This document shows, piece by piece, positions 2,807 through 22,695 of a DNA stretch of 32,000 bases. Under the pieces are notes generated by a model. That model was given only the letters and a program-made list of their open reading frames with translations. It made no database searches and was not told where the DNA came from. Position numbers and translations under genes: made by a program. Source of the DNA: Clostridia bacterium (GTDB lineage: Bacteria; Bacillota; Clostridia; Oscillospirales; CAG-272); the NCBI GenBank assembly GCA_017411805.1, contig JAFQPI010000039.1, forward strand, positions 24,942-56,941, given 5' to 3'. The first letter of the stretch is position 1; each line of letters begins with the position of its first letter.

Positions 2807-4072
2807 ATGAATAATTTTGAAAAAACTACGGAAAATATCCGCGTAGCCGTAATAGGCGGCGGCGCTGCCGGAATGGCAGCCGCCGCCTTTGCCGCGTATG
2901 CGGGAGCTCGGGTCGTTCTTTATGAAAAAAACGGCCCCGGTAAAATGGGTTGGAAGCTTGCAATAACGGGCAAGGGAAGATGCAACGTCACCAATGACTG
3001 CACCCGCGATGAGTTTCTTGAGAATATTCCGCGCAATCCGCGCTTCCTTTATGCAGCGTATTCCGCTTTTCCTCCGAGCAGAGTAATAGAGCATTTTGAA
3101 TATCTCGGAGTACCAACAAAGGTCGAGCGCGGCCGCAGAGTTTTTCCCCAGTCTGATAAGGCAAGGGATATCGTCGATGCTCTCGTGCGCGATCTTGAGT
3201 ATTCGGGGGTCAAGGTCATCGGAGGTGCTGTAAAGAACGTGACCAATGAAAACGGAGTATTTACAGTTCATATGACTCACGCCGAAAAACCGCGTGAGTT
3301 TGACCGCGTGATCCTCGCGACAGGCGGAATATCCTACCCGAGAACGGGATCTACGGGCGATGGCTATGGATTCGCAAGATCGCTCGGACATCATCCGACT
3401 GCGCTTACGGCATCTCTCGTGCCTCTCGTGTCGCCCGGAAAGCTATGCCCGTCGATGCAGGGGCTGTCACTCAAGAATACGGCTCTGACGGTCGTTGAGC
3501 GTGAAAACGGTAAGAAGGTATACGAGGATTTCGGCGAGATAATGTTTACCCATTTCGGACTGACGGGGCCTATGGCGCTTTCCGCCTCGGCGAGACTCGA
3601 AAAGATCACTCCGAATAAATATGACGTCCTTCTTGATCTCAAGCCCGCGCTTGACGAGCCTACTCTCGATGCGCGCTTGCTTTCGGATTTTTCAAAATAC
3701 AAGAACCGTGATCTCGCAAATGCACTAGGCGATCTTCTGCCAAGCAAAATGATCATGCCTTTTATTGAAATGACGGGCATTCCGCATGATACGAAGGTAC
3801 ATTCGATAACGAAAGAGATGCGCAGAAAAATGGTTTCCACATTCAAGTCGTTCCGCGTTCCGATCTCGGGCCTGCGTCCGATAAACGAGGCGATCATCAC
3901 CCGCGGCGGTATTCCTACGGACGAGATAGATCCTCGCACGATGCAATCGAAAATATGCGAGGGACTGTACTTCGCGGGAGAGATAATAGACGTTGACGGA
4001 TATACCGGAGGCTATAATCTTCAGATTGCATGGTCAACCGCATTCCTTGCCGGAAATGCGGCGGCAAAGTGA
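2807..4072 (+). CDS. NAD(P)/FAD-dependent oxidoreductase, HI0933/BaiN-like flavoprotein
   Basis: 421 aa. N-terminal dinucleotide-binding motif VAVIGGGAAGMAAA. GKGRCNVTN and C-terminal GLYFAGEIIDVDGYTGGYNLQ are characteristic of the HI0933 family. Confidence 0.85.
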   Translation: MNNFEKTTENIRVAVIGGGAAGMAAAAFAAYAGARVVLYEKNGPGKMGWKLAITGKGRCNVTNDCTRDEFLENIPRNPRFLYAAYSAFPPSRVIEHFEYLGVPTKVERGRRVFPQSDKARDIVDALVRDLEYSGVKVIGGAVKNVTNENGVFTVHMTHAEKPREFDRVILATGGISYPRTGSTGDGYGFARSLGHHPTALTASLVPLVSPGKLCPSMQGLSLKNTALTVVERENGKKVYEDFGEIMFTHFGLTGPMALSASARLEKITPNKYDVLLDLKPALDEPTLDARLLSDFSKYKNRDLANALGDLLPSKMIMPFIEMTGIPHDTKVHSITKEMRRKMVSTFKSFRVPISGLRPINEAIITRGGIPTDEIDPRTMQSKICEGLYFAGEIIDVDGYTGGYNLQIAWSTAFLAGNAAAK

Positions 4073-4879: not shown

Positions 4880-5492
4880 GCTTTATGCGGTTCTGCATTT
4901 TCTTTTGGCAGGTCTGGCGAGGCTTGTCTTCTGCATTTCATGCAAAACGAGAAAGAAGGAACCTCCTCTTTCGGACGGAGCGCTTCTTGTCTGTGCAAAC
5001 CATATTTCGGTCCTTGACCCCGTGCTGATATGCGCGGTACTTAAAAAGCATCAGCCCCGCATCATGGCAAAAAAGGAGCTTTTCAGCGTTCCTTTTCTCG
5101 GTTGGCTCGTGCGTCAGTTGGGAGCTTATCCCATTGACCGCAAGGGCGCAAATGCGGACGTAATTATGAAGACGATCAAGATGCTTGAAGATGGCTATTG
5201 CGTCGGGATGTTCCCTCAGGGAACGAGACGCGCGGGTGTAGAACCCGAGACCACTCCCGTTAAAGCGGGCGCGGGACTTATCGCATCGAGAGCTAAGGCA
5301 AGCGTTTTGCCCATCCATATAAAGACAAAGGATTACCGTATCAAGGCATTCAGAAGGATCAAGATCACGATCGGAGATCCGATCCCTTATGAGGAATACA
5401 CCAAGGGCGGCGAGCTTGAGGGAGATTCGAGAGCAATTACGCAGTACATTTTCGACCGCATCTGCGAGCTCGGACGTGAGGGCGGCAAATGA
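4869..5492 (+). CDS. plsC: 1-acyl-sn-glycerol-3-phosphate acyltransferase
   Basis: Acyltransferase HX4D motif (NHISVLD) and FPQGTR motif. ATG at 4869 overlaps the cmk stop. cmk-plsC-ispH order is a conserved Clostridial arrangement. Confidence 0.85.
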   Translation: MKSKLYAVLHFLLAGLARLVFCISCKTRKKEPPLSDGALLVCANHISVLDPVLICAVLKKHQPRIMAKKELFSVPFLGWLVRQLGAYPIDRKGANADVIMKTIKMLEDGYCVGMFPQGTRRAGVEPETTPVKAGAGLIASRAKASVLPIHIKTKDYRIKAFRRIKITIGDPIPYEEYTKGGELEGDSRAITQYIFDRICELGREGGK

Positions 5493-7540
5493 TGCGCCAT
5501 GAGATAACCGTCGCAAAGCATGCGGGCTTCTGTTTCGGAGTCAAGCGCGCCACAGATATGATCGCTGAAAAAATCCGATCCTCGGACGGTGATCGGATAT
5601 TCACTCTCGGCAAGCTTATACATAACGATACCTATAACGCGGAGCTTGAAGCTTCGGGAGTGAGGGTGACAAGCATCGGTGAGCTTGAAGATCTTGCAAG
5701 GTCAACCCTGTATGGCACACCCGCGACGGTATTTGTACGCGCACACGGAGTAACAAAGGACACAAGCGAGCTTCTGGAGTCTCTTTCGGAAAAGTATTCC
5801 GGCTTTTCTTACGTTGACTGCACATGTCCTTACGTAAAAAAGATCCATCGTATCGCCGCGGAGAATTCCGTTCCAAAGGCAGATGGTGATGAGCCGATAT
5901 TCATTCTTATCGGAGCTCAAGAGCATCCCGAGGTCGTCGGTATAGTCAGTTATTTCGACGGGAAAAGTTATGTCTTTTCAACCGCTGATGAGCTGCGTGA
6001 GGCAATAGAAAAAAGAATATTGCCAAAAAATGACAATACCGTGCCGATTATAGCGGCACAAACCACTCAAAAGTTAACGGAGTGGAAAAATTCATTAAAC
6101 ATTATCAAAAAAGTATATACAAACGCACAAATTTTTGATACAATATGTAATGTTACGGAAATTCGGCAGCTTGAAGCGGAAGAGCTTGCTAAAGCGTGCG
6201 AGACGGTCATAGTCATCGGCGGACGCGACAGCTCAAACACCGCAAAGCTTTACGCGATCTGCAGGGAGAATTGTAATAATACGATCTGCATTTCCGAGCC
6301 GCAAGAGCTTGAAGGAATAATTCCGAGCATCCCACAAAAAGTGGGGATTGTCGCAGGTGCCTCGACGCCCGGCGGCATTATAGAGGAGGTATACAACAAA
6401 ATGAGCGAAATCAAACTCGACAAGGCGGAAATCAGCTTTGACGAAATGCTCGACTCAGCAATCAAAACTTTAAGTTCAGGAGACACCGTTACCGGTACTG
6501 TTATTGCAGTAAACGACGTTGAGATCAAACTCGACCTCGGCGCAAAAGTTACCGGCATACTGACCGCCGATCAGATATCCGACGATGCTTCTCTGAAGCT
6601 GAGTTCCGAGTACAAGATCGGTGACGAGATAGATGTATTTGTTATCCGTGTCAGCGATGTTGACGGATGCGCAACCGTTTCCAAAAAGCGCGCAGATCTT
6701 GACAAGAATTGGCATATCATCGTTGATGCCAAGGAAAGCGGCGAGAACCTTGAGGGTGTTGTTGCCGAGGCTGTCAAGGGCGGCGTAGTAATCAAGCTCT
6801 ACGGCGCAAGAATTTTCGTACCCGCATCGCAGACCACAGTTCCGAAGGGCGGCGACCTTTCCACCCTCGTTGGCCAGACCGTTAAGTTCAAGGTTATCGA
6901 GCTCAAGGGTCAGGGCAAGAGCGCAGTCGGTTCTATCCGTGCGTCCGCAAGAGAAGAGAGAAAGGCTCTCGAGGCTGCATTCTGGGCAGGAATCGAAGAG
7001 GGCAAGTACTACACCGGTAAGGTAAGAGGAATGACCGAGTACGGCGCATTTATCGACCTCGGCGGCGTAGACGGCATGCTCCACAAGAGAGAGATGTCCT
7101 GGAAGCCGATACATAAGCCTGCTGATATTCTCAATATCGGCGACGAGCTTACTGTATTCGTTAAGTCCTTCGACCTCGAGAAGAAGCAGATCACTCTCGG
7201 CTACCGCACCGAGGAGACACATCCTTGGAAGGTATTCAAGTCCCAGTACGCTGAGGGCGACGTTATCGACGTAACCGTTTCCAACATCATGTCCTACGGT
7301 GCATTCGCAAAGATCACCGACGATGTTGACGGCCTTATTCACGTTTCCCAGATCGCTCTTACCCGCGTTGAGAACCCTGCCGACGTTCTTACCTCGGGTC
7401 AGACCGTTACCGTTAAGATCACCAAGATCGACGATGAGCAGCAGAGAGTAAGCCTCTCTATCAGAGCTCTCCTTGAGGAGACCGCTGAGGAGCCCACCGA
7501 AGCTGAGATCGATGACGGCTACGCAGAGGATGCTGAGTAA
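5489..7540 (+). CDS. ispH: Bifunctional 4-hydroxy-3-methylbut-2-enyl diphosphate reductase (IspH) / ribosomal protein S1-like fusion
   Basis: 683 aa. The N-terminal ~290 aa carry IspH motifs (GFCFGVKRA, CPYV, HPEV, DSSNT). The C-terminal ~390 aa contain four S1 OB-fold repeats (G.V..V..-G..V.L pattern). ATGA overlap with the plsC stop. Confidence 0.9.
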   Translation: MMRHEITVAKHAGFCFGVKRATDMIAEKIRSSDGDRIFTLGKLIHNDTYNAELEASGVRVTSIGELEDLARSTLYGTPATVFVRAHGVTKDTSELLESLSEKYSGFSYVDCTCPYVKKIHRIAAENSVPKADGDEPIFILIGAQEHPEVVGIVSYFDGKSYVFSTADELREAIEKRILPKNDNTVPIIAAQTTQKLTEWKNSLNIIKKVYTNAQIFDTICNVTEIRQLEAEELAKACETVIVIGGRDSSNTAKLYAICRENCNNTICISEPQELEGIIPSIPQKVGIVAGASTPGGIIEEVYNKMSEIKLDKAEISFDEMLDSAIKTLSSGDTVTGTVIAVNDVEIKLDLGAKVTGILTADQISDDASLKLSSEYKIGDEIDVFVIRVSDVDGCATVSKKRADLDKNWHIIVDAKESGENLEGVVAEAVKGGVVIKLYGARIFVPASQTTVPKGGDLSTLVGQTVKFKVIELKGQGKSAVGSIRASAREERKALEAAFWAGIEEGKYYTGKVRGMTEYGAFIDLGGVDGMLHKREMSWKPIHKPADILNIGDELTVFVKSFDLEKKQITLGYRTEETHPWKVFKSQYAEGDVIDVTVSNIMSYGAFAKITDDVDGLIHVSQIALTRVENPADVLTSGQTVTVKITKIDDEQQRVSLSIRALLEETAEEPTEAEIDDGYAEDAE

Positions 7541-8455: not shown

Positions 8456-8566
8456 ATCGTTGTCCTTTCGCATGTTTTTTCTTCGGGATTATTATTCCCA
8501 ATAACATTATATGACGGGATTCGAGCAAAAGCGTCAAAAAAGCTTTACCGAATTTTCCTAAAAGAC

Positions 8567-11590: not shown

Positions 11591-11740
11591 AGGGAAAAGT
11601 GAAAAGTGGAAAGTGAAAAGTGTCGGAAACTTTTTTCGCTTTGCTCAAAAAGTATTTTATTTAAATAATTTCCGAACAAAGTGAGGAAATTTTCCTTAAC
11701 TTTACACTTTCCACTTTACACTTTCCACTTTTCTCCCCTC
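11590..11740. repeat. Inverted arrays of heptamer NAAAGTG, forming a ~150-nt long-hairpin or MITE-like element in the thrS 5' UTR
   Basis: Left arm is GAGGG + AAAAGTG AAAAGTG GAAAGTG AAAAGTG (11590-11622). Right arm is ACTTTA CACTTTC CACTTTA CACTTTC CACTTTT CTC CCCTC (11699-11740). About 31 potential base pairs with 3 mismatches and one 3-nt bulge. An inner stem TCGGAAA/TTTCCGA pairs 11623-11629 with 11669-11675. Confidence 0.8.
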
Positions 11741-11782
11741 GCCATATATAAAACAGAAATTTATTATTATAGGAGAAATAAA

Positions 11783-13717
11783 ATGAACGTAAAAATCAAT
11801 GCTATCGATTATTCGGTAGAAAACGCATCCACGGTTTTTGAAGCCGCTTCTGCGGCAGGCGTTGCGGCGCGCGAGCACATCGCCGCAAAGGTAAACGGTG
11901 TCGTTTCGGCAATGTCGGCTCCCGTGGGGGAAGGCGACGAGATCGTTCTTCTCACCTTCGCTGATGAAGAGGGCAAGAAGGTCTATCGCCACACCGCTTC
12001 CCACATCCTCGCACAGGCTGTAAAGAGACTTTATCCCGAGACCAAGCTCACCATCGGTCCCGCAGTAGACAACGGCTATTACTACGACTTCGACAGCGAG
12101 ATCTCCTTTACTCAGGATATCCTCAAGAATATCGAGTCCGAGATGAAGAAGATCATGCGCGAAAACCTTCGCATAGAGCGTTTTGAGCTCCCGCGCGCAG
12201 AGGCTATCGCTCTTATGACAGAAAGAGAAGAACCCTACAAGGTTCAGCTCATCGAGGAACTCCCCGACGACGCTGTTATCAGCTTCTACCGTCAGGGCGA
12301 GTTTGTTGACCTCTGCGCAGGTCCTCACCTCTTCTCGACCGCCGCTGTAAGAGCCATTAAGCTGACACAGTGCACGGGCGCATATTGGAAGGGTGACCAG
12401 AACAACAAGATGCTCCAGAGAGTATACGGTATCGCATATCCCACTAAGGACGAGATGAACGCATATCTCGCGGCAGTTGAAGAAGCAAAGAAGCGCGACC
12501 ACAACAAGATCGGCCGTGAGCTCGAATTCTTCACCACAGTCGACTGCGTAGGTCAGGGTCTTCCCATTATGCTCCCCAAGGGCGCAAGAACAATCCAGAT
12601 CCTCCAGAGATTCGTTGAGGACGAGGAGAGAAGACGCGGCTGTCAGCTTACCAAGACTCCCCTTATGGCAAAGCGCGATCTTTACCGCATCTCGGGTCAC
12701 TGGGATCACTACCTTGACGGTATGTTCATCATCGGCGATCCCCACGACGAGACCAAGGAATGTCTTGCAATGCGTCCTATGACCTGCCCCTTCCAGTATC
12801 AGGTATTCCTCAACAAGAAGCGTTCCTACCGCGATCTTCCTATGAGACTGACCGAGACCTCCACCCTCTTCCGTAACGAGGATTCGGGCGAGATGCACGG
12901 TCTTATCAGAGTCCGTCAGTTCACCATTTCCGAGGGTCACTACATCCTTTGCCCCGATCAGCTTGAGGAAGAATTCCGCGGCTGTCTCGAGCTTGCAAAC
13001 TATATGCTCAAGGCTGTAGGTCTTGACGGCGACGTAAGCTACCGCTTCTCGCAGTGGGATCCCGCACGTACCGATAAGTACGAGGGTACTCCCGAGCAGT
13101 GGGAAGAGGCTCAGAGCGTTATGAAGCAGATCCTTGACAATATCGGTCTCAAGTACTCGATCGGTATCGACGAGGCGGCATTCTACGGTCCTAAGCTCGA
13201 TATTCAGATCAAGAATGTACACGGTAAGGAAGATACCCTTATCACCATTCAGATCGATATGCTTCTCGCTAAGAAGTTCGGTATGGAATACACTGACTCG
13301 AACGACAAGCGCGTAACTCCTTACATCATCCACAGAACCTCTCTCGGATGCTACGAGCGTACACTCGCTCTCGTGCTCGAGAAGTTCGCGGGCGCACTTC
13401 CTCTCTGGATGGCTCCCGAGCAGGTTCGTGTTCTTCCCATCGGTGTTGAGCACGAGGAGTATGCAAAGAGCGTTCGCGAAAGACTCGAGGCTGCGGGCAT
13501 CCGTACCGAGGTTGACGCGAGAAACGAGAAGATCGGCTACAAGATCCGTCAGGCACAGCTCGAGAAGGTTCCCTATATGCTCGTCGTCGGCGAGAAGGAA
13601 GCCGCAGAGGGCAAGGTTGCCGTACGTAACCGCGGCGGCGTAGACCTCGGCGCGGTAAGCGTTGACGAATTCCTCCTCAAGGCACTTGAAGAGGTAAGAA
13701 CTCTTAAACTCGACTGA
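11783..13717 (+). CDS. thrS: Threonine--tRNA ligase
   Basis: 644 aa from ATG 11783 (RBS AGGAG 7 nt upstream). N-terminal TGS-like region, editing-domain HTASHILAQAV motif, class II catalytic core and C-terminal anticodon-binding domain. The ORF-track start at 11681 only translates the heptamer repeat. Confidence 0.95.
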   Translation: MNVKINAIDYSVENASTVFEAASAAGVAAREHIAAKVNGVVSAMSAPVGEGDEIVLLTFADEEGKKVYRHTASHILAQAVKRLYPETKLTIGPAVDNGYYYDFDSEISFTQDILKNIESEMKKIMRENLRIERFELPRAEAIALMTEREEPYKVQLIEELPDDAVISFYRQGEFVDLCAGPHLFSTAAVRAIKLTQCTGAYWKGDQNNKMLQRVYGIAYPTKDEMNAYLAAVEEAKKRDHNKIGRELEFFTTVDCVGQGLPIMLPKGARTIQILQRFVEDEERRRGCQLTKTPLMAKRDLYRISGHWDHYLDGMFIIGDPHDETKECLAMRPMTCPFQYQVFLNKKRSYRDLPMRLTETSTLFRNEDSGEMHGLIRVRQFTISEGHYILCPDQLEEEFRGCLELANYMLKAVGLDGDVSYRFSQWDPARTDKYEGTPEQWEEAQSVMKQILDNIGLKYSIGIDEAAFYGPKLDIQIKNVHGKEDTLITIQIDMLLAKKFGMEYTDSNDKRVTPYIIHRTSLGCYERTLALVLEKFAGALPLWMAPEQVRVLPIGVEHEEYAKSVRERLEAAGIRTEVDARNEKIGYKIRQAQLEKVPYMLVVGEKEAAEGKVAVRNRGGVDLGAVSVDEFLLKALEEVRTLKLD

Positions 13718-17487: not shown

Positions 17488-19212
17488 ATGAAAAAATTAT
17501 GGAAGTACACAAAGGGATACAGGCGGCAGACCTTCGCCGCGCCCTTTATGAAGCTCGGAGAGGCTCTGCTTGAGCTTTTCGTTCCTCTGCTCGTTGCCGA
17601 GATCATCGACAAGGGTGTCGGAGAGGGCGGTGACAGCGCGCTTGTATGGCGTATGTGCGGACTTATGGTCCTCTGCGGAACCGTCGGAATGATAATCTCG
17701 CTGACCTCGCAGTATTTCTCCGCGCAAGCGGCTGTCGGATTTTCCTGCGCTCTGCGCCGAGATCTCTTCAAGCATACTCTTTATCTTCCCCGTGCGGAGT
17801 CGGATAAAGCGGGCGCATCAGCTCTGCTGACGAGACTTACAGCCGACGTTGACCGTCTGCAGAACGGCATCAACCTCGGTCTGCGTCTGCTCCTTCGCTC
17901 ACCATTCATCGTTTTCGGAGCGGTATTTATGGCTTACGTGACCGATCCCGAAATGTCGCTGATCTTCGCGCTTTCGGTGCCCGCGCTTGCGGTAGTCGTC
18001 TTCGCCATCATCCTTCTTGGCATTCCGATGTTTGCGAAGGTACAGTCGAAGCTCGACAGACTCACACGCCACACGCGCGATAACCTCCGCGGTGTCCGCG
18101 TTATCCGTGCGTTCAACCACGAAAACGAGCAGGTAGATTATTTTGACGAGGCAAACGACTCGCACGCGAAGGAGACCATTTTCGCGGGCAGAGTATCCTC
18201 GCTTCTCAATCCTCTGACCTACGTTATCGTCAATATTGCGATCATTATGATCGTCAAAAACGGCGGACTCGCCGTCGATTCGGGCAGACTTACGCAGGGT
18301 CAGATCATCGCGCTCTATAACTATATGTCGCAGATCCTCGTTGAGCTTGTCAAGCTTGCAAACCTCATCGTAACGCTGACCAAGGCGGGCGCATGCGCAA
18401 AGAGGATCACAAGCGTTCTCTCTATGCCGCTTGAGAGCGACGAGGAGCACGAGACGGTCGAGATCGACGAGACCGCGCCCGCCATCGAGTTTCGCTCGGC
18501 GTCCTTCCGCTACAGAGACAGCAAGGGCGATTCGCTGACAAATATCAGCTTCAAACTTGATGGCGGCAAGCGTCTCGGTGTCCTCGGCGGTACGGGCTCG
18601 GGTAAGACCACGCTCGTCGACCTTATCCCGAGATTCTATGACGTCACGGACGGCGAGGTCCTTATTTACGGCAAGAACGTCAAGGACTATCCCGTAATGG
18701 ATCTGCGCAAGCTGATCGCAGTTGTACCGCAGTCCTCGCATCTTTTTGCGGGTACTGTCGCTGAAAATATGCGTTGGGGCAACCCTGATGCGACGGATGA
18801 CGACATCCGTACCGCTCTCGATGCTGCGGGTGCGCTCGACTTCGTCCTCGCTAAAGAGGGCGGAATCGAGGCTCGCGTTGAGGCAAGAGGCGCAAACTTC
18901 TCGGGCGGTCAGAGACAGCGTCTTGCGATCGCGCGTGCGCTCGTCCGTAAGCCGAAGATCCTCATTCTCGACGATAGCTTCTCGGCTCTCGACTATGCGA
19001 CCGATCTTCGCGTCAGAACCAATATCGCAAGGCTCGAGAATTCTCCCGCAACCGTTATAATTTCGCAGAGGCCCTCTGCCGTAATGGACGCCGACTGTAT
19101 CGTTGTCCTCGATGACGGTGCATCCGCGGGCGTCGGTACTCACAGCGAGCTTATGGAAGACTGCGCCGTTTACCGCGAGACCTACGCAACACAGTACGGA
19201 GGTGAAAACTGA
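17488..19212 (+). CDS. ABC transporter permease/ATP-binding protein (type I exporter half-transporter)
   Basis: 574 aa. N-terminal 6-TM exporter domain. Walker A GGTGSGKTT, signature FSGGQRQR, Walker B ILILDD. Confidence 0.9.
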   Translation: MKKLWKYTKGYRRQTFAAPFMKLGEALLELFVPLLVAEIIDKGVGEGGDSALVWRMCGLMVLCGTVGMIISLTSQYFSAQAAVGFSCALRRDLFKHTLYLPRAESDKAGASALLTRLTADVDRLQNGINLGLRLLLRSPFIVFGAVFMAYVTDPEMSLIFALSVPALAVVVFAIILLGIPMFAKVQSKLDRLTRHTRDNLRGVRVIRAFNHENEQVDYFDEANDSHAKETIFAGRVSSLLNPLTYVIVNIAIIMIVKNGGLAVDSGRLTQGQIIALYNYMSQILVELVKLANLIVTLTKAGACAKRITSVLSMPLESDEEHETVEIDETAPAIEFRSASFRYRDSKGDSLTNISFKLDGGKRLGVLGGTGSGKTTLVDLIPRFYDVTDGEVLIYGKNVKDYPVMDLRKLIAVVPQSSHLFAGTVAENMRWGNPDATDDDIRTALDAAGALDFVLAKEGGIEARVEARGANFSGGQRQRLAIARALVRKPKILILDDSFSALDYATDLRVRTNIARLENSPATVIISQRPSAVMDADCIVVLDDGASAGVGTHSELMEDCAVYRETYATQYGGEN

Positions 19213-21002
19213 TGGCAAAGAATAAGAAAGCCTCCAAGCTTACAAAGTCGGAGCAGAAGTACGTCATCGGACGACTCCTCGGCTTTGCAAAGAGATTCAT
19301 ACCTCTTTTCGTGATCGCATTCATCTTCGCCGCGGCGTCCGCGCTGATGTCGCATTATATTCCCGTTCTCGTCGGCGACGGCATCGACCTTATCGTTGAT
19401 AAGGGTCAGGTCGACTTCGACGGGATCGCAAAGATCCTTCCCGTGATCCTCGCGCTGACTGTCGCGGGCGCGGTGCTCGATTGGTTCGTCAGACTCATCG
19501 CAACCCGTGCGGGTACGATGATCGTCCGCGATATCCGCGCCGAGGCTGTGCGCAAGCTGCAGAAGCTTCCTGTTTCATATTTTGACAGCCACGCTTCGGG
19601 CGATATCCTTTCGCGCATCATCGCTGATACAGACCGTCTTTCAGAAGGTCTGCTGACGGGACTTATTCAGCTCTATTCGAGCGTGCTCGGAATCGTAATC
19701 ACGCTTGTGTTTATGATCATCATCGACTGGAAGGTTGCGCTGATCGTTGCGGTGCTGACTCCTATGTCGATGTTCGTTGCGGGCTTTATCGCATCGAGGA
19801 CATTCTCGCTCTTCAAGAAGAGAACGGAGACCTCTGCCGAGCAGACGGCTCTGATCGATGAATCTGTCGGCGGACGCGACGTTATCACGGCGTTCTCGCA
19901 TCAGAAGGACAGTCTCGCGGCATTCGATGAGATCAACGACCGCTACCGCAAGGTAACGACCCGCGCAGTGTTCTATTCCTCGCTTACCAACCCCGCAACG
20001 AGATTTGTCAACAACCTCGTTTACTGCGGCGTTGCGCTCGTTTCGGCGCTGCTTTCGATCAGCTCGGGAAGCACGATCTCCGCGGGCGGTATCTCTTGTC
20101 TGCTGACCTACGCTTCGAACTACGCCAAGCCCTTCAACGAGCTTTCGGGCGTTGTTACAGAGCTTCAATCCTCGCTTGCAAGCGCGCTCCGCGTATTTCA
20201 GCTTCTCGATGCCGAGGAAATGACTCCCGACACGGAGGATGCCGCAGAGCTCAAGCCGGAGGAGCTTGCGGGTAAGCTCGAGGCACGTTCGCTCGCTTTC
20301 AGCTATACCGACAAGCCCTTTATGGAGAATATGAATTTTTGGGCAAAGCCGGGTCAGAGAATTGCCATAGTCGGTCCTACGGGATGCGGAAAGACAACGC
20401 TTGTCAATCTCTTTATGAGATTCTACGAGCCGACGGGCGGCAATATCGAGGTTGACGGCAAGGATATCTCGAAGGTCACACGCAAGAGCCTGCGTTCCTG
20501 CTTCGGAATGGTCCTTCAGGATACCTGGCTCTCGTCGGGCACTATCCGCGAGAATATTGCGATGGGACGCCCCGATGCTACCGACGAAGAGGTCGAAACG
20601 GCGGCAAGAGCGGCTCACGCACATTCCTTCATCAAGCGACTCCCTCAAGGATATGACACTCCCCTCGGCGAGGACGGCGGCAGACTCTCACAGGGACAAA
20701 AGCAGCTCCTTTGCATCGCCCGCGTAATGCTTTGCCTGCCCCCGATGCTCATTCTCGATGAGGCAACCTCCTCGATCGACCTTCGCACCGAGATCAAGAT
20801 CAATCGCGCATTTGCCAATCTTATGGAGGGCAGAACTTCATTCATCGTTGCCCACCGACTTAACACGATCAAGAATGCCGATTGCATCCTTGTTATGCGC
20901 GACGGTAAGATCGTCGAGCAGGGCAACCACGAAGAGCTTATGTCAAAGAACGGCTTCTACGCCGAACTCTATGGTGCACAGTTCAAGCACGTTGGTGCGT
21001 AA
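19212..21002 (+). CDS. ABC transporter permease/ATP-binding protein (partner half-transporter)
   Basis: 596 aa. TGATG stop/start overlap with the upstream gene. Walker A GPTGCGKTT, signature LSQGQKQL, Walker B LILDEATS. It probably forms a heterodimer with the upstream subunit. Confidence 0.9.
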   Translation: MAKNKKASKLTKSEQKYVIGRLLGFAKRFIPLFVIAFIFAAASALMSHYIPVLVGDGIDLIVDKGQVDFDGIAKILPVILALTVAGAVLDWFVRLIATRAGTMIVRDIRAEAVRKLQKLPVSYFDSHASGDILSRIIADTDRLSEGLLTGLIQLYSSVLGIVITLVFMIIIDWKVALIVAVLTPMSMFVAGFIASRTFSLFKKRTETSAEQTALIDESVGGRDVITAFSHQKDSLAAFDEINDRYRKVTTRAVFYSSLTNPATRFVNNLVYCGVALVSALLSISSGSTISAGGISCLLTYASNYAKPFNELSGVVTELQSSLASALRVFQLLDAEEMTPDTEDAAELKPEELAGKLEARSLAFSYTDKPFMENMNFWAKPGQRIAIVGPTGCGKTTLVNLFMRFYEPTGGNIEVDGKDISKVTRKSLRSCFGMVLQDTWLSSGTIRENIAMGRPDATDEEVETAARAAHAHSFIKRLPQGYDTPLGEDGGRLSQGQKQLLCIARVMLCLPPMLILDEATSSIDLRTEIKINRAFANLMEGRTSFIVAHRLNTIKNADCILVMRDGKIVEQGNHEELMSKNGFYAELYGAQFKHVGA

Positions 21003-21102
21003 ATATAAAATCAAGCAACCTCAAAAATGGGGTTGCTTGGTCATAAAATTTGATCACTAATGATTTTGAACAGAAAAATATACTTTTATTTGTAGGTTGT
21101 AC

Positions 21103-22122
21103 ATGAATAAGAAACTATTGGCAATATTTTATGCAATATTGGCAGCGGCATTATACGCAATAAACATACCGTTATCAAAGTTACTGTTAAATTATATTGA
21201 TCCGACGATGATGGCATCATATCTGTATTTGGGTGCGGGGATCGGGGTCGGTATCTTGTTTCTGATAACAAAAAACAAAGACAAAGAAGTGTACGAAAAG
21301 ATCACCAAAAAGGACTTGCCAAATGTTTTGGGTATGATCGTATTAGATATAGCGGCACCCATATTGCTTATGTTTGGGTTGCTTGACAGTGCATCCTCCA
21401 ACGCATCCTTGCTGAACAATTTTGAAATCGTCTGCACATCTCTTATTGCACTGTTGGTGTTCAAGGAAGCTATTTCCAAGAGGATGTGGTTTGCTATATC
21501 CCTCATTACAATGTCAAGCTTTTTTCTGTCATTTGAGGATATATCGGCTTTCAGATTCTCTTGGGGAGCAATACTCGTGTTATTGGCGACTCTTTGCTGG
21601 GGGCTTGAAAACAACTGCACAAAGAATCTGTCGAAGAAAAATACTTACCATATAGTATTTCTTAAAGGTATCTTTTCTGGACTTGGCTCATTGATCGTTG
21701 CGTTATGCATGAGAGAAAAGTTTGCAATGATAGAGTACTTTGCATTGGCTCTTCTGCTTGGTTTCGTAGCATACGGACTCAGTATATTCTTTTATATTAA
21801 GGCTCAGGGCATCATCGGAGCTTCCAAAACAAGCGCATATTATGCGGTAGCACCCTTTATCGGTACGTGTTTGTCTTTTGTGATTTTCATGGAAAGGCCG
21901 ACTTTAGCATATTTTCTCGGACTTGCCATAATGATCTTGGGAACTGTCATAGTGGTTATTGACACGTTGGCAAAGAAGCACAGTCATACGCATAAGCATA
22001 CCGTTACGCACAGACATAACGGCAGGACTCATTCTCATATGATCGAACACGAACATTTACACAGCCATTATCTGTCTGAACAAAAGCATCGACACCGTCA
22101 TAATAAAGCCGAGATGTGTTAG
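21103..22122 (+). CDS. DMT/EamA-family transporter with a C-terminal His-rich tail
   Basis: 339 aa from ATG 21103. About 10 predicted TM helices in two EamA-like halves. The last ~48 aa contain 15 His. The gene is clearly more AT-rich than its neighbours and uses TTA, ATA and AAA codons freely. Confidence 0.8.
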   Translation: MNKKLLAIFYAILAAALYAINIPLSKLLLNYIDPTMMASYLYLGAGIGVGILFLITKNKDKEVYEKITKKDLPNVLGMIVLDIAAPILLMFGLLDSASSNASLLNNFEIVCTSLIALLVFKEAISKRMWFAISLITMSSFFLSFEDISAFRFSWGAILVLLATLCWGLENNCTKNLSKKNTYHIVFLKGIFSGLGSLIVALCMREKFAMIEYFALALLLGFVAYGLSIFFYIKAQGIIGASKTSAYYAVAPFIGTCLSFVIFMERPTLAYFLGLAIMILGTVIVVIDTLAKKHSHTHKHTVTHRHNGRTHSHMIEHEHLHSHYLSEQKHRHRHNKAEMC

Positions 22123-22171: not shown

Positions 22172-22298
22172 GAAATTTGCCTCGGGCAAATTTCTACCTT
22201 AACCTTTCGCTGAAAGCGAAAGATTTCACTCGCGCGAAGCGCGAATTTCATCTTGCTTCAGCAAGATTTCACATTTCGCCGGCGGCGAAATATTTCAC
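22172..22298. repeat. Array of five distinct perfect hairpins separated by an ATTTCAY linker
   Basis: Hairpins at 22172-22194 (10 bp), 22204-22222 (8 bp, GAA loop), 22230-22244 (6 bp, GAA loop), 22252-22265 (5 bp) and 22273-22291 (8 bp). Linkers are ATTTCAC 22223-22229, ATTTCAT 22245-22251, ATTTCAC 22266-22272 and ATTTCAC 22292-22298. Confidence 0.8.
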
Positions 22299-22308
22299 CG
22301 CGAAGCCC

Positions 22309-22416
22309 GACGGGATTCAGAACCTATATCTGCGCGCATAATTGGGTAATATAATAAAATGCGGATGTAGCGCGCAGATGATTGGTGTCGCGAGCGACAC
22401 CAAGAGGTTCTTCATC
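22309..22416. ncRNA. Candidate structured element, copy 1 (three-helix junction, outer helix partly degenerate)
   Basis: The first 34 nt, GACGGGATTCAGAACCTATATCTGCGCGCATAAT, are identical to copy 2. P2 is ATCTGCGCGC/GCGCGCAGAT (22328-22337 with 22370-22379). P3 hairpin is 22382-22403. P1 is AGAACC/GGTTCT plus 3 more bp beyond a 2x2 internal loop. Strand and expression are unknown. Confidence 0.5.
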
Positions 22417-22422
22417 AAGAAG

Positions 22423-22531
22423 GACGGGATTCAGAACCTATATCTGCGCGCATAATATGTGCGAAACTGACGTGCGGTGATAGCGCGCAGATTTTAGGTG
22501 TTGCGGAGCAACACCTAGAGGTTCTGAATCC
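22423..22531. ncRNA. Candidate structured element, copy 2 (three-helix junction, intact)
   Basis: P1 is 12 bp, GGATTCAGAACC (22427-22438) with GGTTCTGAATCC (22520-22531). P2 is 10 bp (22442-22451 with 22483-22492). P3 is 10 bp (22495-22504 with 22508-22517). Junctions are 2-3 nt. Strand and expression are unknown. Confidence 0.5.
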
Positions 22532-22541
22532 ATACAGATCT

Positions 22542-22581
22542 AAAAAGATAAGAGGTAGCCGAAGGCTACCTCTTATCTTTT
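22542..22581. terminator. Strong bidirectional intrinsic terminator abutting the tRNA-Thr 3' end
   Basis: 15-bp perfect stem AGATAAGAGGTAGCC-GAA-GGCTACCTCTTATCT (22546-22578), flanked by AAAA(A) and TTT(T). Confidence 0.85.
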
Positions 22582-22657
22582 TGGAGCTGGTGACGGGATT
22601 CGAACCTGCGACCTGCTGATTACGAATCAGCTGCACTACCGGCTGTGCTACACCAGC
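22582..22657 (-). tRNA. tRNA-Thr (anticodon CGU), CCA encoded
   Basis: 76-nt cloverleaf on the minus strand. Acceptor GCTGGTG/CACCAGC, D-arm GCAC/GTGC, anticodon stem GCTGA/TCAGC with loop TTCGTAA, T-loop TTCGAAT, discriminator U, then CCA. The T-stem GCAGG/CCCGT has one G-U pair and one A-C mismatch. Confidence 0.9.
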
Positions 22658-22666
22658 GACTTTATT

Positions 22667-22695
22667 ATTATATCACATATGTATAAATTTTTCAA
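22667..22695 (-). promoter_or_regulatory. Sigma-A promoter for tRNA-Thr
   Basis: Minus strand: TTGAAA (22690-22695), 17 nt, gTGaTATAAT (TATAAT at 22667-22672), about 10 nt upstream of the tRNA 5' end. An A-rich tract on the minus strand (22697-22745) lies upstream and could act as an UP element. Confidence 0.7.

Follow-up and report, generated by a model that had tools for sequence, protein, structure and literature searches.

The two tandem repeats of ~110 nt at positions 22309-22531 of the window (the whole 32-kb stretch of DNA analysed here) are copies of a widespread tRNA-linked module family that is absent from Rfam. Searches against Rfam 15 on both strands, at gathering thresholds and permissively at E <= 10, returned nothing that overlaps the repeats and placed only tRNA and Gut-1 models alongside, in agreement with the initial annotation of this DNA, which had recognised no riboswitch or ribozyme in them. 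At least ten different tRNA species are followed by the module across gut Clostridia and environmental GC-rich bacteria. tRNA genes are classic landing sites of genomic islands, the junction usually being taken as a plain direct repeat; here, the junction carries a structured module that is conserved and derives from the T-arm of the tRNA itself, at the very place where gene content varies between strains. As a recombination site, the module would represent an unrecognised route by which single genes are added beside tRNA genes with no integrase in residence; as an RNA, it would establish a new, tRNA-linked family among structured RNAs. The orphan Gut-1 motif might also gain a first functional context from it.

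Module architecture and its tRNA source

The repeats share an identical 34-nt segment (22309-22342 and 22423-22456), spaced by 114 nt, as originally described. Separate folding of each copy, on either strand, reproduced the proposed three-way junction, with z scores between -4.1 and -10.1 relative to dinucleotide shuffles. The P2 arms ATCTGCGCGC/GCGCGCAGAT pair perfectly over 10 bp in both copies, although they cap loops of 31-32 nt rather than the 25-31 nt first reported. The two compensated stem differences that distinguish the P3 hairpins of the copies are evident in the sequence, as is the perfect 12-bp P1 of copy 2 (94% over 16 nt); in copy 1 this helix is 83% complementary. The 16-nt terminal inverted repeats, GGATTCAGAACCTATA / TAGAGGTTCTGAATCC, are 94% complementary.

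The absence of any neighbouring gene that would explain the element had been a premise of the initial annotation, yet a tRNA-Thr(CGU) gene lies 50 nt from the units. The repeats derive from the T-arm and 3' end of this gene, GGTTCGAATCCCGTCACCAGCTCCA: the identical 5' segment GACGGGATTCAGAACC, previously unexplained, is the reverse complement of the tRNA-Thr T-arm and 3' part with one inserted base, and the repeat start GACGGGATTC[A]GAACCT matches tRNA-Thr GACGGGATTCGAACCT. Similarly, the strong terminator at 22542-22581, once proposed as the end of a small RNA, belongs to this overlooked gene as part of a longer palindrome whose outer arm takes in the final 8 nt of the tRNA. Read in the tRNA sense, the locus therefore runs from promoter to tRNA-Thr(CGU), bidirectional terminator and module, and each module consists of an inverted T-arm copy (anti-T-arm), hairpin P3, hairpin P2, a direct T-arm copy (pseudo-T-arm) and the start of the tRNA acceptor strand (Table 1). 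Helix P1 is the inverted copy paired with the direct one. The latter carries 1-2 extra nucleotides after TTC and then continues with the first nucleotides of the tRNA 3' acceptor strand.

Table 1. Features of the tRNA-Thr(CGU) locus and related sites in the window
Feature	Position	Strand	Details
Sigma-70-type promoter of the tRNA gene	22667-22695	-	TTGAAA, 17 nt, TG-TATAAT; 11/12 matches
tRNA-Thr(CGU) gene	22582-22657	-	66.9 bits; ARAGORN
Bidirectional terminator palindrome	22535-22589		26-nt arms, 92% complementary; A-tract and T-tract on both sides
Unit 2 of the module	22423-22531	-	127.6 bits
Unit 2, anti-T-arm	22531-22520	-	GGAUUCAGAACC
Unit 2, P3	22517-22495	-	arms 22495-22504/22508-22517
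Unit 2, P2	22492-22442	-	arms 22442-22451/22483-22492; 31-nt loop; followed by AUA
Unit 2, pseudo-T-arm	22438-22427	-	GGUUC[U]GAAUCC
Unit 2, tail	22426-22423	-	CGUC
Unit 1 of the module	22309-22417	-	108.9 bits
Unit 1, anti-T-arm	22417-22406	-	UGAUGAAGAACC; degenerate
Unit 1, P3	22403-22382	-	arms 22382-22391/22394-22403
Unit 1, P2	22379-22328	-	arms 22328-22337/22370-22379; 32-nt loop of a second type
Unit 1, pseudo-T-arm	22324-22313	-	
Unit 1, tail	22312-22309	-	CGUC
Gut-1 RNA motif match and two more hairpins	22172-22300	-	Gut-1 match at 22218-22300
EamA-family transporter gene	21097-22122	+	lower G+C than surroundings
Possible T-arm-like remnant	21062-21071	+	GATTTTGAAC; far side of the EamA cassette
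Partial tRNA-Thr copy	8510-8522	+	TATGACGGGATTC, continuing as GACGGGATTCGA; intergenic

Beyond the units, the minus strand carries a Gut-1 (RF01706) match of 51.6 bits against a gathering threshold of 50 (59 bits at locus L003), within an array of short perfect hairpins separated by GUGAAAU spacers, the last of which spans 22194-22172. The EamA gene that follows is a strain-variable cassette between the module/Gut-1 segment and a syntenic ABC-transporter gene. On its far side, GATTTTGAAC has the orientation of the pseudo-T-arms and is the sole other GATTYNRAAC in the window, which weakly suggests a T-arm-like remnant; a site analogous to it is present in L008. A 12-13-nt copy of the tRNA-Thr T-loop-to-acceptor segment, 14 kb off and in the same orientation (8510-8522), may be an old repeat. 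A 13.8-kb island between 8522 and 22309 was considered and dismissed, as this interval has no compositional signal and its ABC-transporter genes are syntenic in relatives. The window holds no copies of the module beyond the two.

Conservation, covariation and strain variation

In every homolog, the direct copy is prolonged by the 3' end of the cognate tRNA, as far as CCA and beyond. Matching tails were found for tRNA-Thr, Arg-ACG, Arg-CCG, Ala-CGC and Pro-CGG, with identity to the cognate tRNA over 8-24 nt in 13 units at these 5 different tRNAs; overall, the tRNA-identical tail varies in length from 4 to 24 nt, and the distance between the tRNA end and the pseudo-T-arm is always 135-149 nt. 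A direct repeat of this kind is what remains when DNA inserts site-specifically into a tRNA gene. A genome-wide scan anchored only on P1 recovered three true elements, all of them 51-52 nt after a tRNA gene, the other 16 of its 19 matches being unrelated. Discarded as well were a P2-only pattern, which yielded solely chance matches in GC-rich phages, and many metagenome matches that proved to be coding or fortuitous (e.g. L038, L061, L097) or to reflect convergent tRNA genes (L070).

This linkage bears on whether the units are a classical MITE, that is, a ~105-bp non-autonomous DDE transposon whose terminal inverted repeats of 12-16 bp resemble a T-arm by chance. The size, the 94% complementary 16-nt termini and the similar interiors at different tRNA loci would all suit such an element. 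However, neither repeat end is bordered by a target-site duplication, copies are not dispersed and number only two in the window, and no transposase gene was found nearby. Moreover, every copy sits at a fixed distance behind a tRNA gene, or at a site where that gene has been lost (L109), with a tRNA-specific tail, and the left repeat is frequently degenerate while the interior is conserved. We reject this explanation as quite improbable. Two further candidates were set aside: an invertible DNA switch, since all 19 units analysed below hold a single orientation relative to the tRNA (anti-T-arm, P3, P2, pseudo-T-arm), and a hammerhead or other small self-cleaving ribozyme, whose core (e.g. CUGANGA ... 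GAA ... UH) does not fit junctions of UC, a variable 2-4 nt and AUA, and for which Rfam gave no match.

A covariance model built from close homologs collected 19 units in 14 loci. In this alignment, which was fitted to the model's own structure, 93% of cells are paired and both sides have changed in 16 of 33 pairs; P2 and P3 reach 97-98% pairing, with both-side changes in 14 of 20 pairs. None of 500 shuffles equalled this pairing and covariation, and sliding the partners by 1-3 columns lowered pairing to 28-49%. Conservation extends to the junction nucleotides CUCU and AUAUA and to the P2-loop motif CAGUUUCGCA..AAUUAU. The compensatory changes, taken initially as a sign of selection on structure, thus extend to many homologs. 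They are nonetheless weaker evidence for an RNA than was assumed, because the helices contain hardly any G-U pairs and the adjacent terminator palindrome evolves alike, its changes being likewise all Watson-Crick and fully compensated. All-Watson-Crick compensated change, which in the units includes transversion swaps such as C-G to G-C, is also the expected product of templated correction of DNA palindromes. Among 374 P2 and P3 cells of the Clostridia-type units there are 5 G-U against 3 A-C, so no strand asymmetry is apparent, and an assignment of strand from these counts was abandoned as they are too few and balanced.

The same pattern would be expected of a neutral relic, namely a tandem duplicate of the terminator and the 3' region of the tRNA, without function and in decay, that stays palindromic only through templated (quasi-palindrome) mutation; the fully Watson-Crick helices, the transversion swaps and the similar behaviour of the terminator all accord with it. 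Yet loci with scrambled spacers and terminators differ hardly at all in P2, in the junctions and over most of the P2 loop, and other tRNAs as well as distant GC-rich bacteria show this architecture again. A relic is highly improbable.

The tail marks the precise point beyond which close strains differ in their DNA. The alleles comprise one unit, two units and a hybrid, 4 of 10 contigs break within the tRNA or the terminator, and the interval from the module to the syntenic ABC-transporter gene contains EamA, a GNAT gene, a 348-aa gene or nothing. Units are tandem or stacked in L074, L113, L115 and L111; L115 has a second terminator copy between units and L111 an 85-nt insert flanked by 23-nt repeats. 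The pieces stacked at pseudo-T-arm sites are extra units, a second terminator plus unit, the 85-nt insert and single-gene cassettes. At the same time, none of the orthologous tRNA-Thr loci examined lacks the module, even where the neighbouring protein is only 78% identical, with P2 and P3 kept or compensated, and no tRNA locus without it (an empty site) was encountered among the loci examined.

The GC-rich relatives, which have no Rfam match either, form arrays of tRNA-Ser, module, 1.3-4.3 kb of cargo, partial tRNA and module, and two direct repeats CGGTGGCAA adjoin the tail. Neither a cargo protein nor a recombinase beside the modules is shared by these contigs, and no integrase domains were detected in them. 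Here, the consensus fold is more stable in the tRNA sense than in the antisense (alifold, -61.7 versus -49.8 kcal/mol), and one-sided changes are of the G-U type in the tRNA sense at 10 positions versus 4. No terminator separates tRNA and module; a hairpin with a T-run comes after the module instead.

Function as a DNA site or as an RNA

Our best explanation, which we put forward tentatively, is that the module is non-autonomous, of the att type, and acts mainly at the DNA level in an insertion hotspot beside a tRNA gene; accretion or unequal exchange would have produced the tandem copies. The unit would be the site or element that marks and feeds this hotspot on the 3' side of the tRNA gene, its T-arm-like sequence being used by a recombinase encoded elsewhere. 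A repeat unit of ~165 nt (T-loop to 3' end, terminator and module) may have been duplicated by tandem integration or by unequal exchange between T-arm and pseudo-T-arm, and a later internal deletion could account for the 114-nt period of the window. P2 and P3 would serve as a conserved cis-acting structure, either as protein-binding sites or as a folded single strand like that of integron attC. The tRNA-derived repeat, the tRNA linkage, the strain variation, the tandem loci, the GC-rich arrays and the all-Watson-Crick helices speak for the att-type reading, as does the general principle that partial tRNAs flank integrated elements and that later arrivals push earlier ones outward (10.1101/2020.12.28.424599). 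This reading comes near the initial ideas of a recombinase target site or a small, non-autonomous mobile element.

Several observations weigh against the att-type reading. Pfam scans of the neighbouring genes in the window (18 ORFs) and at L008, L022, L033, L036, L044, L054 and L089 detected no integrase or other recombinase; no empty site or excised form was seen; and neither Clostridia-type nor GC-rich modules matched phage, plasmid or IMG/VR collections. Retention of the module at all orthologous tRNA-Thr loci examined argues for long-term constraint rather than a scar. A simple att repeat also leaves the inverted T-arm copy, the conserved junction nucleotides and the P2-loop motif unexplained, and the G-U bias and missing intervening terminator of the GC-rich relatives fit an RNA.

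The main alternative, serious if unlikely, is a structured non-coding RNA in the tRNA sense, which would form part of the tRNA 3' trailer by terminator read-through and, in the GC-rich relatives, be directly co-transcribed. Its anti-T-arm could pair with the T-arm and 3' end of the tRNA or with the decoy pseudo-T-arm (P1), so as to control or safeguard tRNA folding and processing, or the module could provide a tRNA-like processing signal for the Gut-1 array. The conserved, covarying three-way junction, the conservation of junction and loop nucleotides, the persistence at orthologous loci, the same-strand Gut-1 match and the fold stability, G-U bias and downstream T-run hairpin of the GC-rich family all support such a transcript. 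On the other hand, at all Clostridia-type loci a transcript from the tRNA promoter would meet a long perfect intrinsic terminator before reaching the module, and the interval has no promoter-like site. G-U pairs are nearly absent there and without strand bias, and the variable tail and the strain breakpoints at it resemble DNA rearrangement.

A small RNA from the plus strand, either a 3' UTR belonging to the convergent gene or the product of a separate promoter, ending at the bidirectional terminator and antisense in its 5' part to the tRNA T-arm and 3' end, is improbable. The symmetric terminator would indeed stop plus-strand transcripts right after unit 2, the folds (z = -4.1 and -10.1) are as stable as those of the minus strand, and complementarity spans the entire tRNA 3' end in L008, L022, L084 and L108. 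Nevertheless, no plus-strand promoter-like site occurs between 22104 and 22746, the antisense segment is locked in P1, and the complementarity, of 10 to 25 nt, varies among close strains. If the module acts as an RNA, the plus strand, on which the element was first described, is probably irrelevant, since the tRNA, the Gut-1 model and the GC-rich relatives, which make up the entire context, all favour the minus strand.

A joint and more speculative proposal, which we regard as somewhat doubtful, is that the module is either the cis site of a new tRNA-anchored, phylum-spanning, integron-like cassette-insertion system or a new class of T-arm-mimicking and T-arm-sequestering tRNA-trailer RNA, the Clostridia-type junction and the GC-rich tRNA-Ser arrays forming one undescribed family either way. 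In the integron-like variant, the folded junction of inverted and direct T-arm copies would itself be the recombination site, with the recombinase supplied in trans.

Comparison with known systems

CIME-type elements of Streptococcus ICEs are non-autonomous integrative elements at tRNA genes. Tycheposon arrays in Prochlorococcus exemplify the general principle of integration arrays at tRNA genes (10.1101/2020.12.28.424599). With these and with tRNA att sites the module shares a direct repeat of the adjacent tRNA 3' part, tandem accretion, varying cargo beside the repeat, target tRNAs that are mostly single-copy C34 isoacceptors and, for some elements, the lack of an integrase of their own. It differs in its unit of only 110-165 bp, in the inverted T-arm copy and two conserved hairpins, in the 1-2 extra T-loop nucleotides of the direct copy, in having no integrase beside the repeats and in its vertical retention across a genus-level clade.

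REP/REPIN sequences occur as hundreds of dispersed copies together with a RAYT gene. Like them, the module consists of intergenic hairpins after terminators that persist in place for long and change by compensated, all-Watson-Crick substitution; unlike them, it is low in copy number, strictly tRNA-linked and endowed with tRNA-specific tails. In IS200/IS605 hairpin ends, PATEs and the TnpB omega-RNA, a hairpin scaffold is followed by a target-identical flank. The module similarly joins a hairpin-rich scaffold to ~10-25 nt identical to the flanking target and lies 3' of a short fixed motif, in this case TTC of the T-loop. In contrast to those elements, no tnpA/tnpB gene or remnant and no dispersed copies accompany it, and its other end carries a copy of the target's downstream sequence.

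tRNA-like RNAs (the bacterial Y RNA YrlA, viral tRNA-like structures and mascRNA) resemble the module in a T-arm sequence (near-)identical to that of a cellular tRNA. Yet the T-arm of the module is locked in a duplex with its complement, its 'loop' has 8-9 nt instead of the canonical 7, and there is neither a D-loop partner nor an acceptor stem, nor any Rfam match; no Ro-family gene was present among the ORFs scanned. The Gut-1 RNA motif (RF01706) was listed in 2010 (Weinberg et al., PMC2864571), and our literature search on its function, or on a module of this kind, found nothing past that listing. Gut-1 adjoins the module on the same strand and in the same gut Clostridia, both comprise perfect hairpins after terminators, and a tRNA-Arg(ACG) gene with its terminator immediately precedes one Gut-1 seed member. 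It is nevertheless a separate motif of short hairpins with GUGAAAU linkers, absent at the module loci L008, L105 and L022.

Integron attC sites, of ~60-140 nt, conserve structure over sequence and are defined by R/L boxes (RYYYAAC / GTTRRRY) and extrahelical bases. The module likewise conserves structure over sequence at a comparable length, its imperfect inverted repeat closes a variable, sometimes branched centre and has unpaired bases inside the closing stem, and it lies 3' of single-gene cassettes that form arrays. Its P1 arms, GGATTCAGAACC / GGTTCTGAATCC, do not fit the R/L box consensus, even though unpaired central positions exist. Unlike an integron, with its intI, attI and Pc, the module locus has none of these; its array is headed by a tRNA gene and its closing stem is tRNA-derived.

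Two folded units behind a tRNA-Thr gene

The two tandem units of the initial annotation were recovered: they share an identical 34-nt segment at a spacing of 114 nt, and no further copy occurs in the 32-kb window. The P2 arms pair over 10 bp with no mismatch in either copy, the two stem positions at which the P3 hairpins differ are each compensated, and P1, which closes the junction, pairs without mismatch in copy 2 against 83% complementarity in copy 1. Folded alone, each unit yielded the same three-way junction on both strands (z −4.1 to −10.1 against dinucleotide shuffles). On the other hand, the claim that no neighbouring gene explains the element did not stand, as a tRNA-Thr(CGU) gene had been overlooked; what had been taken for a strong terminator is indeed a palindrome, but one that overlaps the 3′ end of this tRNA, with A- and T-tracts on both sides. 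In the tRNA sense (minus strand), the locus therefore runs promoter, tRNA, terminator, unit, second unit and Gut-1 RNA. The window also encodes threonyl-tRNA synthetase, 9 kb from the tRNA gene.

Features of the locus (window positions)
Feature	Position	Strand	Remark
Copy of tRNA-Thr T-loop-to-acceptor segment	8510-8522		intergenic, GACGGGATTCGA
Threonyl-tRNA synthetase gene	11681-13717		
ABC-transporter gene	19212-21002		
T-arm-like remnant	21062-21071		GATTYNRAAC
EamA gene	21097-22122		G+C ~0.40-0.47
Gut-1 array	22172-22300	-	
Gut-1 RNA	22300-22218	-	Rfam, 51.6 bits (threshold 50); opposite side of units from tRNA
Unit 1	22309-22417		
Identical segment, unit 1	22309-22342		
P3 hairpin, unit 1	22382-22403		
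Unit 2	22423-22531		
Identical segment, unit 2	22423-22456		
P3 hairpin, unit 2	22495-22517		
Terminator palindrome	22535-22589		26-nt arms
tRNA-Thr(CGU) gene	22657-22582	-	ARAGORN and Rfam
tRNA promoter	22695-22667		sequence motif, near-consensus

On the plus strand each unit opens with GACGGGATTC[A]GAACCT, which is, but for one inserted base, the tRNA-Thr segment GGTTCGAATCCCGTC in reverse complement. In the tRNA sense, each unit consists of this inverted copy (anti-T-arm), UC, P3, 2 nt, P2 with a 31-32-nt loop, AUA, a direct copy with an extra nucleotide after TTC (pseudo-T-arm, GGUUC[U]GAAUCC) and CGUC. P1 is an inverted partial T-arm copy paired with a direct partial copy of the same T-arm; a classical MITE, which would take these arms as terminal inverted repeats, is highly improbable.

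The terminator stem differs wholly in sequence among strains with identical tRNA and neighbour protein (the window versus strain contigs L003 and L008); in the window and its orthologs the palindrome is perfect, takes in the last tRNA nucleotides and is always fully compensated. At the homologous locus L105, and degenerately in the window, it runs on into an inverted copy of the tRNA 3′ end, so that the 3′ part of the tRNA, terminator and anti-T-arm form one long quasi-palindrome. Downstream of terminator and modules, the Gut-1 array comprises 5-6 short perfect hairpins with GUGAAAU linkers. Gut-1 recurs at L003, L024, L103, L113 and L115 (further homologous loci), and in the 2010 seed alignment arrays again lie behind terminators, one of them directly behind a tRNA-Arg(ACG) gene. 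Since the linkers of these seed arrays change midway from GUGAUAU to AUAUCAC, the array is overall a large interrupted palindrome, a layout more suggestive of a DNA-level or protein-binding repeat than of a classical small RNA. Analogous hairpin arrays with other linkers were observed behind the modules of other species, namely in L033, a rabbit Clostridia MAG locus (3150-3320, minus strand; linkers UGAUG, second half CAUCAU), and in L114 (1-120; linker GAUGAUAUAC), which suggests that linker-plus-hairpin arrays form a broader class with Gut-1 as one member.

Alleles, orthologs and relatives at other tRNA genes

Comparison of 10 contigs encoding an identical downstream protein revealed several alleles. 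L001 and L002 carry two units; L003 and L004 have one unit plus Gut-1 and a different distal flank, and the species-representative genome (L024) has one unit, with a P2 loop of unit-1 type, plus Gut-1. L008 harbors a single hybrid unit (unit-1 P2 loop, unit-2 P3) without Gut-1, whose pseudo-T-arm extends through the entire tRNA 3′ end (..AATCCCGTCACCAGCTCC). In four of the 10 contigs the sequence breaks off within the tRNA or its terminator, as expected where co-occurring strains differ.

Orthologous tRNA-Thr loci, reached via homologs of the neighbouring phosphoesterase (78-91% identity), carried the module wherever examined. L113 and L115 have two units each, and L111 has a unit, an 85-nt insert between 23-nt repeats (ATATAGGTTCTGAATCCCGKCAC) and a degenerate unit. 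The tRNA and module of L108 are together inverted with respect to their neighbours, and the pseudo-T-arm reproduces the variant T-loop of its own tRNA (GGGTTC[GT]AAATCCCTCCATCAGCTCCAAAA), while L109 has lost the tRNA and kept module and terminator. A second, diverged terminator between the two units of L115 indicates that the ancestral repeat unit, ~165 nt long, extended from the T-loop and took in the 3′ end, the terminator and the module; internal deletion would then have shortened the period to 114 nt in the window and to 129 nt in L113.

When 185,579 species genomes were scanned with a pattern that fixed the P1 arms alone, 19 stretches matched, of which three are true elements: L024, from the window's own species, L022, from a goat-cecum Clostridia MAG, and L033. 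They lie 51-52 nt behind genes for tRNA-Thr(CGU), Arg(ACG) and Ala(CGC), respectively, in the same relative orientation; in L022 and L033 the P2 and P3 sequences are entirely different and the fold is unchanged. A metagenome scan added L051 and L074 at tRNA-Arg(CCG), the latter with two tandem units, and L084 at tRNA-Pro(CGG). In all first units the pseudo-T-arm lies 135-149 nt from the tRNA 3′ end and, after a 1-2-nt insert behind TTC, matches the cognate tRNA exactly over 8-24 nt, sometimes past CCA. Separately, long perfect palindromes with T-arm-like arms, capped GGATTTTGAACC ... GGTTCAAAATCC, were seen in Saprospiraceae (L027, 2391-2485), Prosthecobacter (L028, 3400-3495) and Abditibacterium (L029, 1254-1352) MAGs; no tRNA was found in L027 or L029, the two scanned.

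The metagenome scan further uncovered ~45 GC-rich environmental loci, mostly at tRNA-Ser (CGA, GCU, GGA, UGA) and also at Gln(CUG), Tyr, Glu(CUC) and possibly, in one case, Arg(CCG). None matched an Rfam family, and they share the layout of the Clostridia type: the tRNA is followed by a spacer of ~55 nt, then by an inverted copy of the T-arm or 3′ end that carries one base more (GGGGGGATTC[C]GAACC), by a 60-200-nt interior that is conserved and contains multiple hairpins, and finally by the 3′ part of the tRNA in direct copy, starting from the same T-loop position. The two copies pair as a closing stem in most single-sequence folds; behind the tail come a conserved hairpin with a T-run and the direct repeats CGGTGGCAA x2. 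Several contigs show a repeating array of tRNA-Ser, module, 1.3-4.3 kb of cargo, partial tRNA (starting from the anticodon or variable arm) and module; in the tRNA-Ser(CGA) arrays of five metagenome contigs (L036, L053, L054, L079, L101), a conserved ~330-nt non-coding block stands behind every full or partial tRNA. The cargo is diverse (M23 peptidase, DUF169, Fic, baeRF and methyltransferase genes), with no integrase domain found and no protein common to different contigs. A module-like segment was also noted on the minus strand of contig L042 within a Tyr-Gly-Thr tRNA operon, between tRNA-Tyr (5455-5539) and tRNA-Gly (5112-5186), made up of GGATTCAGAACC, then hairpins, then ATCCACCCCCC, which directly repeats the 3′ part of tRNA-Tyr; given this location, it must be co-transcribed with the tRNAs.

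Covariation of the helices

A covariance model built from 10 close units recovered 19 units in 14 loci. Paired cells amounted to 97.9% in P3, 96.8% in P2 and 86% in P1, with both-side changes at 7 of 10, 7 of 10 and 2 of 13 pairs, respectively, counts that are biased towards the structure by fitting the alignment to the model. None of 500 shuffles matched the values for the whole structure, and pairing fell to 28-49% once partners were slid by 1-3 columns. P1 is often unpaired at three central positions, with GAUGAAGAACC as a frequent anti-T-arm variant. Independent single-sequence folds of 13 sequences, among them L108 and L109, nevertheless produced this junction every time.

A structured RNA in the tRNA sense, which such pairing would fit, is the main, if doubtful, rival to a DNA-level element. 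The GC-rich loci support it weakly, through alifold energies (−61.7 kcal/mol in the tRNA sense versus −49.8 antisense) and one-sided changes of G-U type (10 positions versus 4); a plus-strand antisense small RNA is, for its part, very unlikely. However, two points limit the inference of an RNA: G-U pairs are nearly absent and without strand bias (5 G-U and 3 A-C among 374 cells of P2 and P3), and helix swaps are often transversions without intermediates, such as C-G to G-C in 7 of 19 sequences. The terminator palindrome behaves in the same all-compensated manner across strains, and templated correction of DNA palindromes would produce such a pattern without selection on an RNA. The most improbable reading is that of a neutral relic. 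Counting against it, hardly any variation is seen in P2, in the junctions (CUCU, AUAUA) or in most of the P2 loop, whereas the surrounding spacers and terminators are scrambled.

A variable slot and the nature of the module

The ABC-transporter gene is syntenic in L008, L103, L105 and L115. The slot from its terminator to the module varies in content: it holds EamA and Gut-1 in the window, only Gut-1 in L103 and L115, a GNAT gene in L105 and L111, and in L008 a gene for 348 aa without Pfam family. The EamA gene, missing or replaced in these five loci, has a G+C content below its surroundings, and homology between strains ends within the tail (the tRNA 3′ nucleotides after the pseudo-T-arm) or just after. 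The T-arm-like remnant at the far side of the cassette, the sole other match to its motif in 32 kb and also present in L008, is weak, post hoc evidence. One DUF2971 gene and one MmeI-type restriction-modification gene lie in the distal flank of L022. Finally, the exact 12-13-nt copy of tRNA-Thr located 14 kb from the tRNA, oriented as the pseudo-T-arms and with no inserted base, could be an old att repeat or chance; synteny and composition of the window gave no support for an island boundary there.

Site-specific insertion at tRNA genes in general yields features such as those seen here (10.1101/2020.12.28.424599): a direct repeat specific to the tRNA, breakpoints at the tail, stacking of units and inserts, and arrays with partial tRNAs. 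We therefore tentatively favor an att-type, non-autonomous module that acts at the DNA level and marks a hotspot of insertion. Tandem integration may have produced the pair, as may unequal exchange of the T-arm with the pseudo-T-arm, in either case with a later deletion. Four things are not explained by the att-type reading: that a T-arm copy is inverted, that hairpins and a loop motif are conserved, that the module persists vertically, and that no recombinase gene lies near it. The first three would follow from a folded single-strand recombination site. The Rfam comparison proposed in the initial annotation placed the element outside Rfam 15, and no description of it was found in the searchable literature. 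That it is something new, either a tRNA-anchored cassette system with a folded T-arm-derived site or a new tRNA-trailer RNA family, is unlikely but a genuine possibility. The known kind to which the module is akin is that of att-type repeats and non-autonomous elements at tRNA genes, and the analogue of the proposed folded site is the integron attC site.
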